58,992 bases of DNA, taken from NCBI GenBank assembly GCA_964567595.1, contig CAZMNF010000007.1:1-58992 (forward strand). Direction: 5' to 3'. This document shows, one piece after another, positions 26,378-31,932 of this stretch. Position numbers and translations under genes: made by a program. The notes under the pieces are model-generated. The model was not told the origin of the DNA, searched no databases, and was given only the letters and a program-made list of their open reading frames with translations. The DNA is from an uncultured Thermotogae bacterium (GTDB lineage: Bacteria; Bipolaricaulota; Bipolaricaulia; RBG-16-55-9). How positions within the stretch are numbered: position 1 is the first letter of the stretch; each line of letters starts with the position of its first letter.

Positions 26378-26827
26378 ATGGCCGCCCTGATCGAGCAACT
26401 GATCGATCAACTGCAGAGCGCCGGCTACCGGAACACGCCGGCCCGTCGAGCGGTCTTGGAAGCCCTCATCGACGGCCCTTCGCACATGACAGCTCCCCAC
26501 GTCGTGGCGGCCGTGGGTGAGACCTCGCCCAGTGTGGGGCGTGCGTCGATCTATCGGACGCTGGAGCTGCTCACCAGGCTCGGCCTCGTGCAGGCCTCCA
26601 CGTTGGGGGGCACCGAGACGACCTACATGCTGGCTCCGTCGGGGCATCATCATCACGCCATTTGCCTGGAGTGCCGCGAGACGATCGAGATCGACGAGTG
26701 CGTCATGGGCGAATTGGAAGGGGCGCTACGCGAACGTACCGGCTTCGAGGTCCGGGGGCACTTGCTGGAGATTTACGGGCTCTGTCCGCAGTGCGCAGCG
26801 TTGAAGCGCGATAACCACCAGAGCTGA
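26378..26827 (+). CDS. Fur-family regulator (probably Zur)
   Basis: T..RRAVL, ASIYRTLELL, HHHHAICLEC and C-terminal CPQC; adjacent to a Zn-type ABC operon. Confidence 0.92.
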   Translation: MAALIEQLIDQLQSAGYRNTPARRAVLEALIDGPSHMTAPHVVAAVGETSPSVGRASIYRTLELLTRLGLVQASTLGGTETTYMLAPSGHHHHAICLECRETIEIDECVMGELEGALRERTGFEVRGHLLEIYGLCPQCAALKRDNHQS

Positions 26828-26875: not shown

Positions 26876-26936
26876 TTGACAATGGAGCGACGGTCGGATA
26901 AATATGATACGTAGTATCATCTGAGTATGAGGCTCA
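26876..26936 (+). promoter_or_regulatory. Promoter with two tandem Fur/Zur-like boxes
   Basis: TTGACA at 26876; palindrome ATGATAC-GTA-GTATCAT (26904-26920) and TGAG-N7-CTCA (26922-26936), both 15-bp TGA..TCA. Confidence 0.6.
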
Positions 26937-26961: not shown

Positions 26962-27903
26962 ATGCAAGTCGAATCGGCCTTCCGCTCGGCAAAAGGGCGG
27001 ATAGCGATGTTGCTCGGGGTGGTCCTCGCCATCGGCCTCATCTTGGGTAGTCCAGCGCTCGAGGAAGCTCAGGCGCAGCCGGCAAGCGACCTGAACATTG
27101 TCGTCACCACGACGATCCTGGGCGACGTGGTCGGCAACGTCGCGGGTAGCGCCTACGATCCGGAGGTTCTGTTGCAGCCAGGGCAGAACCCGCACGCGGT
27201 GTCACTGAATCCGAGCATGCTTCGCGCCATGGTCGAGGCCGACGTCGTGTTCGCCCAAGGACTCGGTTTCGAGGGGTTCCTCGGAGACGCGCTGGAGGCC
27301 TCCGGCGACGAGATCAACGTCATTCGCGCCTCGGACGGAATTCCCACGCGCCAGCTTGGCGACGTCGTCGATCAACACGCCTGGTTCAACCCGGCCAACG
27401 TGGCGATCTGGACGGACAACGTCCGCGAGGTGCTCGTCGACCTGGATCCGGCCAATGCCGAGCAGTACGCCATCAACGCCCTGCGGTACCAGGGCGAGCT
27501 GGCCGAGCTGGACGCGTTCATCGAGGAGCGGATCAGCGAGCTTGATTCCCAAGAGCGCAAGATCGTGGCCGATCATCGGGCTTGGGGCTACTTTGCCGAC
27601 CGCTACGGCTTCGAGTTTCTCGGTGCGGTCATCCCCAACCTGAGCGACAACGCCGAGCCCTCGGCCCGCGACGTGGCCCGCACCATCGACGTGATCCGCG
27701 AGGAGAACGTCCCAGCGGTCTTCGTGGGCAACACGGCCCGTCCCGACGTCGCTGAGCAAGTCGCGGCAGAGACCGGGGCGGAGATCGTTCGGCTGTATAC
27801 CGGCTCGCTCAGCAATCCCGATGGCCCGGCTCCGACGTATCTGGCGCACATGCGCTTCAACGTCAACGCCATCGTTGACGCGCTCGACCGGGGCGCGGAA
27901 TAA
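26962..27903 (+). CDS. Zn/Mn ABC transporter substrate-binding protein (cluster A-I)
   Basis: VVTTTILGD, NPH, DQHAW.NP, DH.AWGYF and EPSA motifs; N-terminal signal peptide. Confidence 0.92.
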   Translation: MQVESAFRSAKGRIAMLLGVVLAIGLILGSPALEEAQAQPASDLNIVVTTTILGDVVGNVAGSAYDPEVLLQPGQNPHAVSLNPSMLRAMVEADVVFAQGLGFEGFLGDALEASGDEINVIRASDGIPTRQLGDVVDQHAWFNPANVAIWTDNVREVLVDLDPANAEQYAINALRYQGELAELDAFIEERISELDSQERKIVADHRAWGYFADRYGFEFLGAVIPNLSDNAEPSARDVARTIDVIREENVPAVFVGNTARPDVAEQVAAETGAEIVRLYTGSLSNPDGPAPTYLAHMRFNVNAIVDALDRGAE

Positions 27904-27938: not shown

Positions 27939-28718
27939 GTGAAGCCACAGGGCCGGCGCGATCGGCACGACACGGACGAGCCGATCCTCCAGGTCGAGGA
28001 CGTCACGCTGCGCTACGGCGACCAGTCCGCCCTCGACGAGCTCTCCTTCCAGCTGGAGACGGGCGAGCAGGTCGCCGTGGTCGGCCCCAACGGCGCGGGC
28101 AAGAGCACGCTGCTGAAGATCGTCGCCGGCATTCTCCAGCCCACTGCTGGCAGAATCCGCATCTACGGCCACCGCCCCGCGCGCCACGTCTGCGTCGCCT
28201 ACGTGCCACAGCGCAGCGAGATCGACTGGCGCTTCCCCGTCAACGTCTTCGACGTCGTGTTGATGGGCCGCATCAGCCAGCTGGGCCTGTTCCGTCGGCC
28301 ACGGGCGCACGATCGACAACTGGTCCGGGAGAGCCTGGAGACGCTCGACATCGACCACCTGGCTGAGCGCCAGATCGGCGAACTGTCCGGTGGTCAGCAG
28401 CAGCGGGTCTTCATCGCGCGAGCGTTGGCTCAGCAGGCTGAGCTGATGCTCTTGGACGAGCCGTTGAGGGGACTCGACGTCAACGCCGAGCGCGAGATCT
28501 GGGAGATCCTCGACGTGCTGCGCGAACAGGAGGTGACGAGCCTGGTGACCACCCACAACCTCGACCTGGCCGCCGAGCGCTTCGATCGGATTATGCTGCT
28601 CAACAAGGCGCTCTTCGGCTTCGGCCCGCCCAAGGAGACGCTCTCCGACAGCCGCGTCGCGGCGGCGTACGGCGGCCGAGCGTCGTTCCGCGAGTCGGTG
28701 ACCTCCTCCGATGCTTGA
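27939..28718 (+). CDS. Zn/Mn ABC transporter ATPase
   Basis: GPNGAGKST, YVPQ, LSGGQQQR and LLDEP motifs. Confidence 0.93.
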   Translation: MKPQGRRDRHDTDEPILQVEDVTLRYGDQSALDELSFQLETGEQVAVVGPNGAGKSTLLKIVAGILQPTAGRIRIYGHRPARHVCVAYVPQRSEIDWRFPVNVFDVVLMGRISQLGLFRRPRAHDRQLVRESLETLDIDHLAERQIGELSGGQQQRVFIARALAQQAELMLLDEPLRGLDVNAEREIWEILDVLREQEVTSLVTTHNLDLAAERFDRIMLLNKALFGFGPPKETLSDSRVAAAYGGRASFRESVTSSDA

Positions 28719-29568
28719 GACCCTCCTCGAGCCGCTGCAGTTCGGCTTCATGGTCCGTGGCCTCATCGCGGCGATCGTCGTGGGCATCGTCTGCTCGGTC
28801 GTCGGGACCTACGTCGTGTTACGCGGCATGGCGTTCTTCGGCAGCGCGCTGGCCCACTCCGTGCTGCCTGGCTTGGCTGCGGGGTATCTCGTCACGGGCG
28901 CGACGCGCGGGGTGCTGTTCTGGTGGGGATTGGCGACCGCGATCCTCGTCTCGCTCGGCATCGGCGTCGTCAGCAAGGCGGCCCGCCTCCGGGAGGACAC
29001 CGCCATCGGCATCCTCTTCGCGGCCATGTTTGCGCTCGGCATCGCGCTCATCTCCTCAACGAACAGCTACGCCGTCGACCTCACGCACTTCCTGTTCGGC
29101 AACGTGCTGGGCGTATCCACGGCCGACCTGTGGCAGATCGGGATTGCGGGCGCGGTCGTGCTCGTCGTCGTGGGGGCGCTCTACAAGGAGTTTTTGGTCC
29201 TGTCCTTCGATCCGACGCTGGCGCAGACGATGCGGCTTCCGACGCGGACGCTGGACAACCTGCTCTTGGTGCTGATCGCGGTCACGATCGTCGTATCGCT
29301 GCAGACCGTCGGCGTGGCGCTCATGGTCGCGATGCTCGTCACGCCCGCCGCGACGGGGACGCTGCTGTCGCGGCGTCTGCCCGGCGTCATGCTTGCCGCG
29401 GCGCTGGTGGGCGCGCTCTCGGGCGTGATCGGGCTCTACGCCTCGTACTTCATCGGCATTGCGTCCGGCCCGTCCATCGTGCTCGTCTGCACGGGGATCT
29501 TCCTCCTGGCGCTGATGCTGGCGCCGGGGCGGGGCAAGGTCTGGCAGTGGGCTCTGGCTTCAGAATGA
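28711..29568 (+). CDS. Zn/Mn ABC transporter permease
   Basis: ALAH..LPG, EDTAIG, LFGNVL and SFDP motifs. Confidence 0.93.
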   Translation: MLETLLEPLQFGFMVRGLIAAIVVGIVCSVVGTYVVLRGMAFFGSALAHSVLPGLAAGYLVTGATRGVLFWWGLATAILVSLGIGVVSKAARLREDTAIGILFAAMFALGIALISSTNSYAVDLTHFLFGNVLGVSTADLWQIGIAGAVVLVVVGALYKEFLVLSFDPTLAQTMRLPTRTLDNLLLVLIAVTIVVSLQTVGVALMVAMLVTPAATGTLLSRRLPGVMLAAALVGALSGVIGLYASYFIGIASGPSIVLVCTGIFLLALMLAPGRGKVWQWALASE

Positions 29569-29599
29569 CGCGCCCCGGCGTGGACGTGCCTTTGCAGAG

Positions 29600-29628
29600 T
29601 TGAAGCTCTCTTGAATCGGGTCTAAATT
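29600..29628 (+). promoter_or_regulatory. Sigma70-type promoter TTGAAG-N17-TAAATT
   Basis: Exact 17-nt spacer; ends 4 nt before ATG 29633 with no SD, so the mRNA is probably leaderless or near-leaderless. Confidence 0.55.
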
Positions 29629-29632
29629 CTCC

Positions 29633-30070
29633 ATGCTTATGAGGCTCGCGACCGGGACGCTCACGCTCGTGCTGGTGCTAGGGCTCGTCGTCAGCTCGAC
29701 GGCCTCGCTCTGTTGGTTCCACGGCTCGACAGGGAGGCTGACGGCTGACGCGCCGACTAATGGCCAACCCGCCCACGATCACGGGCACTCGCACTCCCAC
29801 GCGTCGGCTCACCCCCACCAGGATTCGGCGCATGCCTCAGAAGCGACGAGTCGCGCCGAGTCGCCCGATGACCTCATCTGCCACCACAATGGGCCCCATC
29901 CCGACGTCGCGACGACCGTGGAACTGCCCAATTCCCAGCTGATGGTCGATCCCGCCCCAGAGCGGAATCCCACGTTGGACGCCGTCTCCGCTATCCGGCA
30001 CGTCGACCAAGCGGCACGGTCGCCTCTGGACGTGTCCCCGCCCGACCGGCCTCCGGCTCGGTCTGCCTGA
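29633..30070 (+). CDS. His-rich exported leader protein with C-terminal PPDRPP (DUF2946/CutF-like uORF candidate)
   Basis: Hydrophobic N-terminus, HDHGHSHSHASAHPH, ICHH and Pro-rich C-terminus; first gene of the operon. Confidence 0.65.
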   Translation: MLMRLATGTLTLVLVLGLVVSSTASLCWFHGSTGRLTADAPTNGQPAHDHGHSHSHASAHPHQDSAHASEATSRAESPDDLICHHNGPHPDVATTVELPNSQLMVDPAPERNPTLDAVSAIRHVDQAARSPLDVSPPDRPPARSA

Positions 30071-30151
30071 CCCATCCGATTCTGCGAAGACGCAGCCAAG
30101 CTTCGCGTCCGAGACCATCCCGACGCGCAGGACCGAGAAAGGAGCCGAGCC
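30051..30151 (+). promoter_or_regulatory. RBS-sequestering mRNA structure
   Basis: CTCC(30051-54) pairs with SD GGAG(30141-44) and CTCGGTC(30057-63) with GACCGAG(30131-37), enclosing hairpins CTGCG/CGCAG and CGCGTC/GACGCG. Confidence 0.55.
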
Positions 30152-30154
30152 ATC

Positions 30155-30715
30155 ATGAAACGCCGCTTGATCGTCATGTCGGCGCTGCTCGCCGTTGGCC
30201 TGATCGCCGCTTTTGCGTTCGGTTTGAGCCCGTTCACATCCCCCGAGACCGAGGCCCAAATCGATGAGCCCCGCACCACCCAAAGGATGCAGTCGGTCGG
30301 GTCGACGACGTGGGAGGGCATGCGCATCAGCGTGGCACGTGCTGAGCCGTCCCGGTTCATGATCTTCCAGGGCCAGGACAACCGGCGCGTGGTTGAACCG
30401 CAGCCCGAGGACAGCGTCCACCTCATGGCCGTGCTGGCCGACGAGCAGACGGGCGAGCGCATCCCCTACTCGACGGTCTGGTTCACCATCAAGGACCAGG
30501 ACGGCGACGTCGTCTTCGATGACCGGACTTGGCCCATGCTCTCGCAGAACATGGGCACGCACTACGGCGTCAACGTCGGCTTCCCCGAGCCGGGCACTTA
30601 CGACGTGGAGGTCCAGATCGGGGCCCCCATCTCCGCGCGCCATCCCGAGTACATGGACCGCTGGCTCGACCAGTTCACCTTCGAGACCGAGATCGAATGG
30701 GAAGGTGAGCAGTGA
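30155..30715 (+). CDS. P19/Tp34-like exported metal-binding protein
   Basis: Signal peptide; HLMA..D, PM....G.HYG.NV, PG.Y and RH, matching the P19/Tp34 pattern. Confidence 0.75.
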   Translation: MKRRLIVMSALLAVGLIAAFAFGLSPFTSPETEAQIDEPRTTQRMQSVGSTTWEGMRISVARAEPSRFMIFQGQDNRRVVEPQPEDSVHLMAVLADEQTGERIPYSTVWFTIKDQDGDVVFDDRTWPMLSQNMGTHYGVNVGFPEPGTYDVEVQIGAPISARHPEYMDRWLDQFTFETEIEWEGEQ

Positions 30716-31932
30716 TGGAACCGATCCCCCGCCGACGCTTCCTCCGCGGGGCGGGGCTCACCGTCGGCGGCTTGCTGGTCGGTGGGCCGACGACGCTGAT
30801 CCGAGCTGAGCCGGGGCCCGAGTTGGGCCCCGCTCCGGATCGGCCGGAGCGCCAACACGCTTGGAACGATTTCCTGCGCGTCAACGCGGACGGCAACCCG
30901 GTCATGCCGAGATTCCATCGGCTCTTGATGTTCGACGTGGACGGCGACGCGACGCCAACGGCCGTTCGGCGTCTGGAAGCCCAGCTGCGCGACTGGGAGC
31001 GCCGCTACGACTGGTCGTCCGAGGGCCTGATGTTCGTGCTCGGCTGGGGCCCCAAGTACTTCGCCGAACGCCTCGGCGTGGACGCGCCCATCCCGCGCCC
31101 TCAAGCCCTGAGCAGCTTCGAGACGCCCAAATTCGACGACTACGAGGCCTGCCTCCATCTGGCCAGCGACGACGAGGTGCGGCTCAACCGATTGGAGGCG
31201 GAGCTGCGCGAGGGCGACTTCCGGGTCCGGGAGACGCTCCGTCGCCGAGAGACGCGCACGGGCTTCGTCGGCGAGGGCCTGCCGGCCGAGCGCCAGGACG
31301 TGTCCGGGATCCCGTCGGGATGCCCCGTTTCGGGTGATTCCCCGCTTTATATGGGGTTCAGCTCGGGATTCCGGAGAAACCAGGCGACCGAGGACGAGGT
31401 GGCCATTCCGGATGGCCCCTTGGCGGGAGGCACGACGATGCAAGTCAGCTGGCTACGGCTGCGACTGGAGGGCTGGTACGAGCTGCTCGACCCCGAGGAG
31501 CGCGTCGATCGCATGTTCGCGCCCTCGCTCACCAGCGACGACGTTGAGGCCCTGACGAGCGAAGCACCGACCTTCACCGATCAACTGGCCCAGACCGCGC
31601 GCGAGCAAGGCGTCATCGGCCACCTGCAGGCAGCGGCGCAGGCGCGACGCAACGGCCGCCCGCTCATCCTGCGGCGCGACTTCAACACGACCGACGAGGG
31701 AACGGCCGGGCTCCATTTCGTCTCGTTGCAGCGCTCGATCGACGACTTCGTCCAGACCCGGCGAGCCATGAACGCCTCCAACATGATTTTTGAAAATCCG
31801 TCGATCAAGCCGCGCGTCAACAACGGCATCAAGGAGTCGATCTTTGTGCTGCGCCGCGCCAACTACCTCGTGCCGTCGCGGGCACAACGGGCGTTCCCCT
31901 TGTTGCCGAACCGAGAGGATGGGATCGGATGA
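30712..31932 (+). CDS. Tat-exported DyP-peroxidase-like protein
   Basis: RRRFL twin-arginine signal; GF, MGF, GGT..VS, GH, ILRR, GLHFVSLQ and NYLVP echo the DyP/EfeB fold. Confidence 0.7.
   Translation: MMEPIPRRRFLRGAGLTVGGLLVGGPTTLIRAEPGPELGPAPDRPERQHAWNDFLRVNADGNPVMPRFHRLLMFDVDGDATPTAVRRLEAQLRDWERRYDWSSEGLMFVLGWGPKYFAERLGVDAPIPRPQALSSFETPKFDDYEACLHLASDDEVRLNRLEAELREGDFRVRETLRRRETRTGFVGEGLPAERQDVSGIPSGCPVSGDSPLYMGFSSGFRRNQATEDEVAIPDGPLAGGTTMQVSWLRLRLEGWYELLDPEERVDRMFAPSLTSDDVEALTSEAPTFTDQLAQTAREQGVIGHLQAAAQARRNGRPLILRRDFNTTDEGTAGLHFVSLQRSIDDFVQTRRAMNASNMIFENPSIKPRVNNGIKESIFVLRRANYLVPSRAQRAFPLLPNREDGIG

Follow-up and report, generated by a model that had tools for sequence, protein, structure and literature searches.

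A small histidine-rich, exported-type open reading frame ahead of an FtrA/P19-like operon in a Bipolaricaulota bacterium is a candidate metal-sensing leader of the CutF/CruR type

Metal-sensing nascent-chain leader open reading frames (ORFs) that read the periplasm have two worked examples, CutF and CruR, both of which sense copper and both of which come from Proteobacteria. As described in the excerpts of the published reports on which all of the comparisons below draw, CutF of the Rhodobacter capsulatus cutFOG operon is a 118-amino acid, Sec/SRP-exported protein with a CxxxC motif and the C terminus ...GPPPRL, and a copper-prolonged stall melts a stem-loop over the Shine-Dalgarno (SD) sequence of cutO (PMC9973294; bioRxiv 10.1101/2025.02.05.636593). 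CruR (Bp2923) of Bordetella pertussis is reported to be a poorly structured, 145-amino acid DUF2946 protein with an export signal, CXXC at residues 90-93, RAPP at residues 139-142, and a conserved 45-residue spacing, and its stall blocks Rho termination in the 162-nt cruR-bfrG intergenic region (PMC9426467). The window analyzed here is a 58,992-nt stretch (65% G+C) of contig CAZMNF010000007.1 from an uncultured bacterium of the Bipolaricaulota lineage (GCA_964567595.1), and it contains a small gene, ORF145, that ends 84 nt upstream of a same-strand gene (start 30155) for an FtrA/P19/FetP-like periplasmic Fe2+ transport protein. On balance, ORF145 is probably a cis-acting, exported metal-sensing leader ORF of the CutF/CruR type, in which ribosome dwell at a C-terminal D-R-P-P motif would control the FtrA-like operon. 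A preliminary description of this sequence had proposed such a stalling leader together with a specific RNA switch; the leader part is supported by comparison, because of its invariant motifs, fixed spacing, agreement with the published description of CutF-like proteins, and position before a metal operon, and the RNA switch did not hold up.

ORF145 was recovered at the expected length of 145 residues, His-rich and ending ...SPPDRPPARSA (coordinates of all features are in Table 1). Its second ATG (29639, giving 143 residues) is the probable true start, because it aligns with the start of the copy in a sister species (G001), which has the same locus in the same gene order as the genome of the window (G000). 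Comparison of these two copies gave a ratio of nonsynonymous to synonymous substitution rates (dN/dS) of 0.41, six neighboring genes gave values of 0.12-0.25, and the G+C fraction at the three codon positions of ORF145 is 0.70, 0.55, and 0.79. ORF145 is a real gene under purifying selection; its dN/dS and the existence of homologs led us to reject the possibility of a spurious ORF, and two minus-strand shadow ORFs (29809-30462 and 29837-30643) were also rejected, as their codon-position G+C is not gene-like.

The encoded protein contains 13 His and 2 Cys residues. The hydrophobic N terminus expected of an exported protein is there (residues T9-A24, followed by S-T-A|S), and export itself, which the preliminary description had taken as given, is predicted from this hydrophobicity alone. 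After this segment, 83% of the residues are polar or disorder-promoting and 17% are hydrophobic. No Pfam family matched ORF145 at E ≤ 0.01, and an NCBIfam scan gave only noise on His tracts and signal-like segments, from models for Ni/Co efflux, UreE, AgrD, and toxin subunits that all scored far below their cut-offs. The excerpted operational description of CutF-like proteins calls for fewer than 150 residues, a PP among the final 15, an N-terminal signal, and a neighboring gene on the same strand across a short intergenic region (PMC9973294); ORF145 has 145 residues, PP near its end, a hydrophobic N terminus, and the 84-nt gap to its same-strand neighbor.

Protein homology searches, which were restricted to proteins of near length, placed four homologs with ORF145 (P0002, P0003, P0005, and P0006), at identities of 33-76%. 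A single-sequence search of 5.8 billion proteins recovered only ORF145 itself and P0002, and an exhaustive HMMER search of 1.84 billion representatives at E ≤ 0.001 gave four matches (P0002, P0003, P0005, and P0004). The last of these (3471 amino acids, 11 stretches) was taken to be a His-rich low-complexity match and set aside, and P0006 was added by a profile search. Among the 184 genomes of the phylum, the family is present in two, G000 and G001, and it is very rare. A metagenome scan with query A3 found no relative, and a plasmid tblastn search with P0005 found no match. One metagenome locus obtained with query A7 (L066; this group is described below) was discarded, its frame looking non-coding and lying opposite a long gene.

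The ORF145 subfamily (A5) comprises six sequences, and a second subfamily (A6) comprises a paralog on contig C27 of the same genome and two database relatives. The six A5 sequences have 26 invariant columns in common. Within residues 131-142 (P-L-x-x-x-P-x-x-R-P-P-A), 7 of 12 positions are invariant versus 2.15 expected (P = 0.0012, six sequences), and within residues 14-27, which cover the export segment and the following Cys, 7 of 14 are invariant versus 2.5 expected (P = 0.004, six sequences); two long stretches between the conserved blocks are depleted in invariant columns (5 of 52 and 4 of 45). A Cys-His-His (CHH) motif is invariant in 6/6 members of A5 and 3/3 members of A6, and R-P-P is invariant across 13 sequences of A5, A6, and A7, bar one that has K-P-P. 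The distance from the Cys of CHH to the Arg of R-P-P is 54-55 residues in all nine members of A5 and A6, the distance from the second Cys of CxxC to the same Arg is 34 residues in all five of the members that have CxxC, and the tail after the second Pro is four residues long in eight of the nine. DUF2946 proteins have a fixed spacing of a like kind (PMC9426467). Conservation in these alignments falls where a nascent-chain sensor would need it.

The preliminary description noted that ORF145 has no CxxC motif, which is true of the copy in the window; P0005, P0006, and subfamily A6 carry C-D-L/R-C where ORF145 has N-S-Q-L-M. At these codons (100-104, positions 29930-29944), the copies in G001 and P0002 read T/I-C-Q-L-M, and distant relatives read C-D-L-C. 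Because relatives keep C-D-L/R-C and G001 and P0002 keep one Cys, CxxC has been lost stepwise in the ORF145 lineage.

The paralog on contig C27 (G000:C27:23436-23891, equal to L016:1486-1941 on the minus strand) encodes 151 residues ending ...SRIERPPTSLT and has the hydrophobic N terminus, His tract, and CHH of ORF145 together with C-D-R-C. Two CopC-domain genes, assigned by Pfam, follow it, the first after 109 nt. Profile-profile comparison of A5 with A6 (hhalign) gave a probability of 97.2% (E = 4e-11 over 116 columns), and a profile of A6 only, built without ORF145, recovered ORF145 at E = 1.5e-5. Upstream of the C27 paralog is the arrangement TTGATG-17 nt-TAGGGT-6 nt-ATG without an SD, which suggests a leaderless mRNA.

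The design recurs elsewhere in the genome. Among 8980 six-frame ORFs of 60-220 residues in G000, nine end in (D/E)RPP plus at most 8 residues; three of these nine have an N-terminal hydrophobic segment, compared with 227 of the 8980 overall (hypergeometric P = 0.0012, post hoc), and all three adjoin metal genes. A looser scan of the same genome (60-160 residues, hydrophobic N terminus, third-position G+C ≥ 0.65) gave 129 ORFs, 10 of them with PP in the last 15 residues, and these 10 include three Cys/His-rich ORFs on contig C34 that lie by DUF411, cupredoxin-like, and P-type ATPase genes. At the C34 loci (L065, G000:C34:12736-16035; L070:1926-2183, minus strand), a 137-residue ORF (CxxC, ...GLDHPPTHDCSPRC) precedes the DUF411 gene, a 124-residue ORF (H-C-M-G-C, ...HPPQTSILPPA) precedes a Crp-family gene, and an 85-residue ORF (L-C-H-H, ...ELPPPRR) precedes the cupredoxin-like and P-type ATPase genes. 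Taken together, these loci resemble a copper island in which several leader ORFs occur. The 2.1-Mb genome contains at least five more small ORFs of ORF145 design beside copper genes.

A further group, A7, has as members ORFs on contigs G000:C17 and G001:C98, one in G024, and the protein-only records P0011 and P0012. H-C-x-S-C is found in its members, whose C termini read ...SRLDRPPQA or ...TKPPTFHS; for three of the five, DNA context was available, and in all three a DUF1573 gene follows. A7 has no significant profile similarity to A5 and reaches only E = 0.013 against A6. The members in G000 (G000:C17:14402-14746, equal to L022:1492-1836 on the minus strand; 114 residues) and G001 (L063:1495-1842, minus strand; 115 residues) have the same H-C-x-S-C, end in ...SRLDRPPQA/V, and each lie upstream of a DUF1573 gene, and the G000 copy is downstream of CsoR and P-type ATPase genes. 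In both species, the 9 nt directly 3' of the stop codon (CTCCCCTTT) are perfectly complementary to the downstream SD (AAAGGGGAG), with which they pair in both the minimum free energy (MFE) and the centroid folds. Judged by this predicted pairing, the L022/L063 locus makes a stronger case for a CutF-type SD switch than does the locus in the window.

If ORF145 is a leader of the CutF/CruR type, we infer its export, stall, metal sensing, and direction and mode of control to be as follows. Transcription would start from the conserved promoter-like block of ORF145 itself, possibly yielding a nearly leaderless mRNA, and the N-terminal hydrophobic segment would target the nascent chain to the Sec translocon. 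By the time that the ribosome reaches D-R-P-P, CHH (about 56 residues back) and the His tract would already be outside the ribosome and across the membrane, and the last ∼35 residues would fill the exit tunnel. Metal bound to the exported part would then alter ribosome dwell time at R-P-P (codons 30047-30055), and a ribosome parked there, with the mRNA covered roughly as far as the stop codon, would determine how strongly the FtrA/P19-like, DUF7405, and ORF185 genes are expressed. The coupling could be the melting of weak local structure around the SD, as for CutF, or the shielding of the transcript from Rho, as for CruR; Rho and EF-P genes are present in the genome.

More tentatively, ORF145 and the CopC-linked paralogs may constitute an unnamed family of Sec-coupled arrest leaders with its own arrest word (D/E-R-P-P) and its own ruler (54-55 residues to the Arg from CHH, 34 from CxxC). 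Having lost the Cys pair, the copy in the window would carry a sensor retuned to a metal held by His, be it Fe(II), Zn, Ni, or Cu(II), and would gate an FtrA/P19-type iron-uptake operon. Were this so, a metal-sensing stalling leader would for the first time be linked to the acquisition of iron or zinc, not to copper handling, and ORF145 would be the first such leader in Bipolaricaulota. Should the stall be true, the family would offer natural variants with which to ask what sets metal specificity and the distance from the sensing site to the peptidyl-transferase center.

The block directly upstream of ORF145 is identical to that of G001 at 41 of 42 nt, and the adjoining intergenic DNA has diverged. 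The preliminary description had assigned ORF145 its own promoter here. The conservation of the block and a layout of -35, 17-nt spacer, and -10 elements that is the same as that of the promoter-like znuA site (TTGACA-17-TAAATA) speak for this assignment; against it, TTGAAG-17-TAAATT matches the consensus at 8 of 12 positions, and because the match is no better than this, a promoter scanner reported 0 promoter-like sites. The -10-like TAAATT is followed by 4 nt and then the ATG, with no SD before ORF145, and a leaderless or near-leaderless mRNA is possible. The pentamer TTGAA occurs twice at an 11-bp period (TTGAAgctctcTTGAA, 29597-29616), overlapping the -35-like hexamer, a layout that we take to be typical of response-regulator binding sites. 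The znuA site itself lies between the Fur-family gene and znuA (26876-26920) and overlaps a perfect 7-3-7 palindrome, ATGATAC-GTA-GTATCAT (26904-26920), at whose position G001 has TGATA-CGAAA-TATCA; from its sequence, the palindrome is probably a Zur-type operator. A Zur/Fur box upstream of ORF145 was considered and rejected, the znuA palindrome being absent from the ORF145 upstream block.

Two models of how a stall might be coupled to the downstream genes are sub-cases of the stalling-leader reading, and both were weighed against the sequence between ORF145 and the FtrA-like gene. In the preliminary description, the downstream SD is sequestered by 30051-30063, a segment made up of R-P-P codons and the nucleotides that come next, and a stall at R-P-P would free it. 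The complementary words are where this model needs them (CTCC at 30051-54 with GGAG at 30141-44, CTCGGTC at 30057-63 with GACCGAG at 30131-37, and GGCTCGG at 30055-61 with CCGAGCC at 30145-51), the two enclosed hairpins are present, MFE and centroid folds alike contain the 7-bp GGCUCGG/CCGAGCC helix, and CutF is reported to work by SD occlusion. In the window, GGAG has an unpaired probability of 0.10, which becomes 0.36 once the end of the ORF is masked; the G001 values are 0.15 and 0.48. However, among 119 other GGAG-led genes in G000, 23% show equal occlusion and masking brings an equal gain in 12%, so that SD occlusion before the FtrA-like gene is ordinary for this genome. The fold of 30030-30175 is no better than that of shuffled sequences (MFE -43.4 versus -45.0 ± 3.7 kcal/mol, z = +0.45, with 136 of 200 shuffles as good), nor is the equivalent fold of G001 (z = +0.45, 131 of 200 as good). 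The duplex between the R-P-P zone and the SD (-20.6 versus -16.4 ± 3.6 kcal/mol) is equaled by 14% of 300 shuffles, and that of G001 (-8.4) is weaker than its shuffle mean (-10.6). On the thin basis of a two-species alignment of the window and G001, the latter keeps 3 of 7 GGCUCGG/CCGAGCC pairs, 4 of 7 CUCGGUC/GACCGAG pairs, 2 of 5 pairs of hairpin 1, and 4 of 5 pairs of hairpin 2, with 0 compensatory changes in the helices and no double-sided change in the hairpins; the CUCC/GGAG pairing is uninformative because it is invariant (4/4) in both. A search of run contigs X5 and X1 gave only the sequence of the window and a G001-like relative without 29946-30184, and no third sequence. Every G001 change in the proposed helices breaks pairing, while the peptide motif is intact. 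One point does speak for SD occlusion as a habit of the family: in the predicted folds at L016, L022, L063, and L065, of which only L016 is a demonstrated ORF145 homolog, a stretch with CUCC located at the stop codon of the small ORF, or shortly past it, pairs with the downstream SD, and the 9-nt anti-SD of C17/C98 is conserved, but these folds too are no better than shuffles (z from -0.86 to +0.08), and tidy anti-SD pairing is to be expected by chance in a GC-rich region that is rich in Pro codons. An SD-sequestering switch, being no better than chance, ordinary in its genome, and broken without compensation in G001, is improbable at this locus. The other model, in which a ribosome paused at R-P-P would shield C-rich intergenic RNA from Rho and metal-controlled release would let Rho terminate before the FtrA-like gene, we regard as unlikely. 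It is in keeping with the presence of Rho in the genome, with an intergenic composition of 37% C, 27% G, and 11% T in the window and 34% C and 26% G in G001, with the rejection of an intrinsic terminator (0 terminator-like sites in 29400-30400), and with the mechanism reported for CruR (PMC9426467). It also fits the 10 nt directly 3' of the ORF145 stop codon (CCCATCCGAT, 30071-80), which are identical in G001 amid diverged intergenic sequence and would occupy the mRNA channel when a ribosome terminates at 30068-70. At 84 nt, the region nevertheless offers little room for a rut site (the cruR-bfrG region has 162 nt, according to the excerpts), it contains hairpins, and its composition bias is modest. 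Rfam gave 0 matches in 29300-30400 at E ≤ 1.

It is also a real possibility, if not the one we favor, that ORF145 encodes an ordinary small metal-binding protein, rich in His and Cys and either secreted or anchored in the membrane, that would serve the FtrA/P19-like protein or ZnuABC as a metallochaperone or metal buffer. In that case, D-R-P-P would act at the level of the protein, in a contact or in processing, and have no nascent-chain role. Purifying selection along its length, the 13 His residues and invariant CHH, the location of the gene, flanked by those for a Zn/Mn-type ABC importer and for Fe2+ uptake, and the lack of a conserved RNA element coupling ORF145 to the FtrA-like gene are all what such a protein would lead one to expect, and the fixed spacing would suit a short structured or partner-bound region. 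Less expected of it are invariant positions that occur only in the signal segment, in CHH, and over the last 12 residues, the rest being depleted; the 83% polar, 17% hydrophobic composition; a signal segment that is among the best-conserved parts, which is unusual for a cleaved signal; a gene without an SD and with its own conserved upstream block; and the recurrence of the design at the head of other metal operons in the genome, as the excerpts describe for CutF-like leaders. The reading of ORF145 as a stalling leader has points of its own to answer. PF11162 (DUF2946, the family of CruR and CutF) was not matched by ORF145 and, even at E ≤ 10, matched only one of five family members (E = 9.9). 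The RAPP-like arrest consensus that was tested is (R/Q/H)-(A/G/D)-(P/G/S)-(P/G), and most of the natural RAPP-like sequences tested gave no stall, according to the excerpted report (PMC10987492); R-P-P-A falls outside this consensus at positions 2 and 4. DNA loci of the ORF145 subfamily number only two, no conserved SD-occluding structure or terminator joins ORF145 to the FtrA-like gene, and the fixed spacing and conserved C terminus would also fit a small folded or partner-binding protein. Finally, because ORF145 has lost the CxxC of its relatives and has the highest dN/dS in the cluster, it could be a decaying copy.

The genes that flank ORF145 are compiled in Table 1. Relatives of the FtrA/P19-like protein in the PDB are FtrA (8vv5, E = 1.1e-4), 3nrp, and Tp34. 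The DUF7405 protein has a weak match, below the cut-off, to the Dyp-peroxidase C-terminal domain (PF20628, E = 0.0064), and a PDB search found no relative of it. ORF185, which is translationally coupled to the DUF7405 gene, had no Pfam family and no PDB relative in our searches; it is kept in G001 with a dN/dS of 0.25. Its N terminus is signal-like, ending ...SLAH-GGEE, and the mature protein may start with His. An ArsP_2 permease gene lies further downstream on the same strand. In a genome of another genus (G003), an FtrA/P19-like gene (L069:1495-2004, minus strand; 58% identical) followed by a DUF7405 gene starts 7 nt after an unrelated, pseudouridine synthase-looking gene and has no ORF145-like leader. 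Because the FtrA-like/DUF7405 pair occurs there without ORF145, ORF145 is accessory to the operon.

Table 1. Coordinates of ORF145, its parts, and the neighboring features in the window
Feature	Position	Strand	Basis or remarks
Fur-family regulator	26378-26827	+	Upstream neighbor; Pfam
ZnuA	26962-27903	+	Upstream neighbor; Pfam
ABC ATPase	27939-28718	+	Upstream neighbor; Pfam
ABC-3 permease	28711-29568	+	Upstream neighbor; Pfam
Conserved upstream block, promoter-like TTGAAG (29600-05)-17 nt-TAAATT (29623-28)	29591-29632	+	G001 comparison
ORF145, small exported-type His/Cys-rich CutF-like protein	29633-30070	+	ORF list; 145 amino acids; stop codon 30068-30070
Hydrophobic export segment T9-A24 (TLTLVLVLGLVVSSTA), then S25-L26-C27	29657-29704	+	Kyte-Doolittle 15-residue maximum 2.31
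His-rich tract H48-H62 (HDHGHSHSHASAHPH)	29774-29818	+	Sequence; register shifts among homologs
Invariant Cys83-His84-His85 (CHH)	29879-29887	+	Family alignment
Candidate arrest motif D138-R139-P140-P141-A142	30044-30058	+	Four residues before stop
Intergenic region, 84 nt	30071-30154	+	Hairpins 30082-30095 and 30105-30126; SD GGAG 30141-44; CCGAGCC 30145-51
FtrA/P19/FetP-like periplasmic Fe2+ transport protein, with signal peptide	30155-30715	+	PF10634, E = 6.5e-9
DUF7405 protein, twin-arginine signal RRRFLRGAGL	30712-31932	+	PF24152, E = 2.6e-104
ORF185, exported-type protein with C-terminal membrane helix	31929-32486	+	Stop/start overlap with DUF7405 gene

Among the systems already described, the preliminary description had suggested that a His-based sensor might be an undescribed variant. 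This was overstated, because CutF-like clusters with His only are already in print: of 29 clusters in the sequence similarity network of CutF-like proteins, clusters 14 and 17 have His-rich motifs only and adjoin HupE/UreJ, as excerpts of the report have it (Ozturk et al. 2023; PMC9973294). Like ORF145, these are CutF-like leaders with His as putative ligands; they differ in adjoining genes for Ni/Co (HupE/UreJ), whereas ORF145 retains the invariant Cys of CHH and has an FtrA/P19-like gene downstream. ORF145 was compared with clusters 14 and 17 by description, and it may be identical with either. Our literature searches found no work joining arrest peptides with histidine-rich metal sensing, no leader ORF among the titles listed for Bipolaricaulota and copper, and nothing tying FtrA to ribosome stalling beyond unrelated work.

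Arrest peptides of the RAPP-like kind, namely SecM (RAGP), ApdA/ApdP (RAPP), and ApcA (RAPG/RAP-x; RQH family), share with ORF145 an N-terminal localization signal, a C-terminal Arg-x-Pro placed a few residues ahead of the stop, and a regulated gene downstream. As described in the excerpts, they regulate sec/yidC genes and monitor export, not metals. Variants in the ApcA cluster end in RAPA, RAPT, and RAPQ (PMC10987492), which resemble the RPPA, RPPT, and RPPQ found in this work.

With CruR, ORF145 has in common a length of 145 residues, an arrest-like motif at residues 139-142, an export signal, a fixed spacing from ligand to motif, and a place at the head of a metal-uptake operon. R-P-P of ORF145 (residues 139-141, four residues before the stop) matches CruR RAPP (139-142) in position and differs in sequence: CruR has R-A-P-P, CXXC, and a 45-residue spacing, and ORF145 has R-P-P-A, no CXXC, and 54-55 residues from CHH. 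Of the DUF2946 features, the N-terminal export-type signal is present in ORF145, and CXXC/CxxxC and the 45-residue spacing are absent; across the 184 genomes of the phylum, no protein exceeded the 23.7-bit gathering cut-off of PF11162, the best score (22.4 bits) being that of the A7 member in G024. The intergenic region is 162 nt with demonstrated Rho termination for CruR and 84 nt, known from sequence, for ORF145.

CutF and ORF145 are both small and have an N-terminal signal; in each, a fixed number of residues separates a Cys-type metal motif from a C-terminal Pro motif placed 2-4 residues ahead of the stop, and in both a short intergenic region is followed by the gene for an exported metal-homeostasis protein. 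They differ in the motif itself (D-R-P-P-A in ORF145, G-P-P-P-R-L in CutF), in the ligands (CHH and a His tract without CxxxC versus CxxxC), in the spacing (54-55 residues, or 34 from the CxxC of relatives, versus 45), in the stem-loop over the downstream SD (none that is conserved for ORF145, present for CutF), and in the downstream gene (FtrA/P19-like versus multicopper oxidase). Taken with these excerpted descriptions, the locus in the window would represent the same design in a barely cultured phylum, with a different arrest word, ligand set, and ruler, and placed before an iron-uptake operon.

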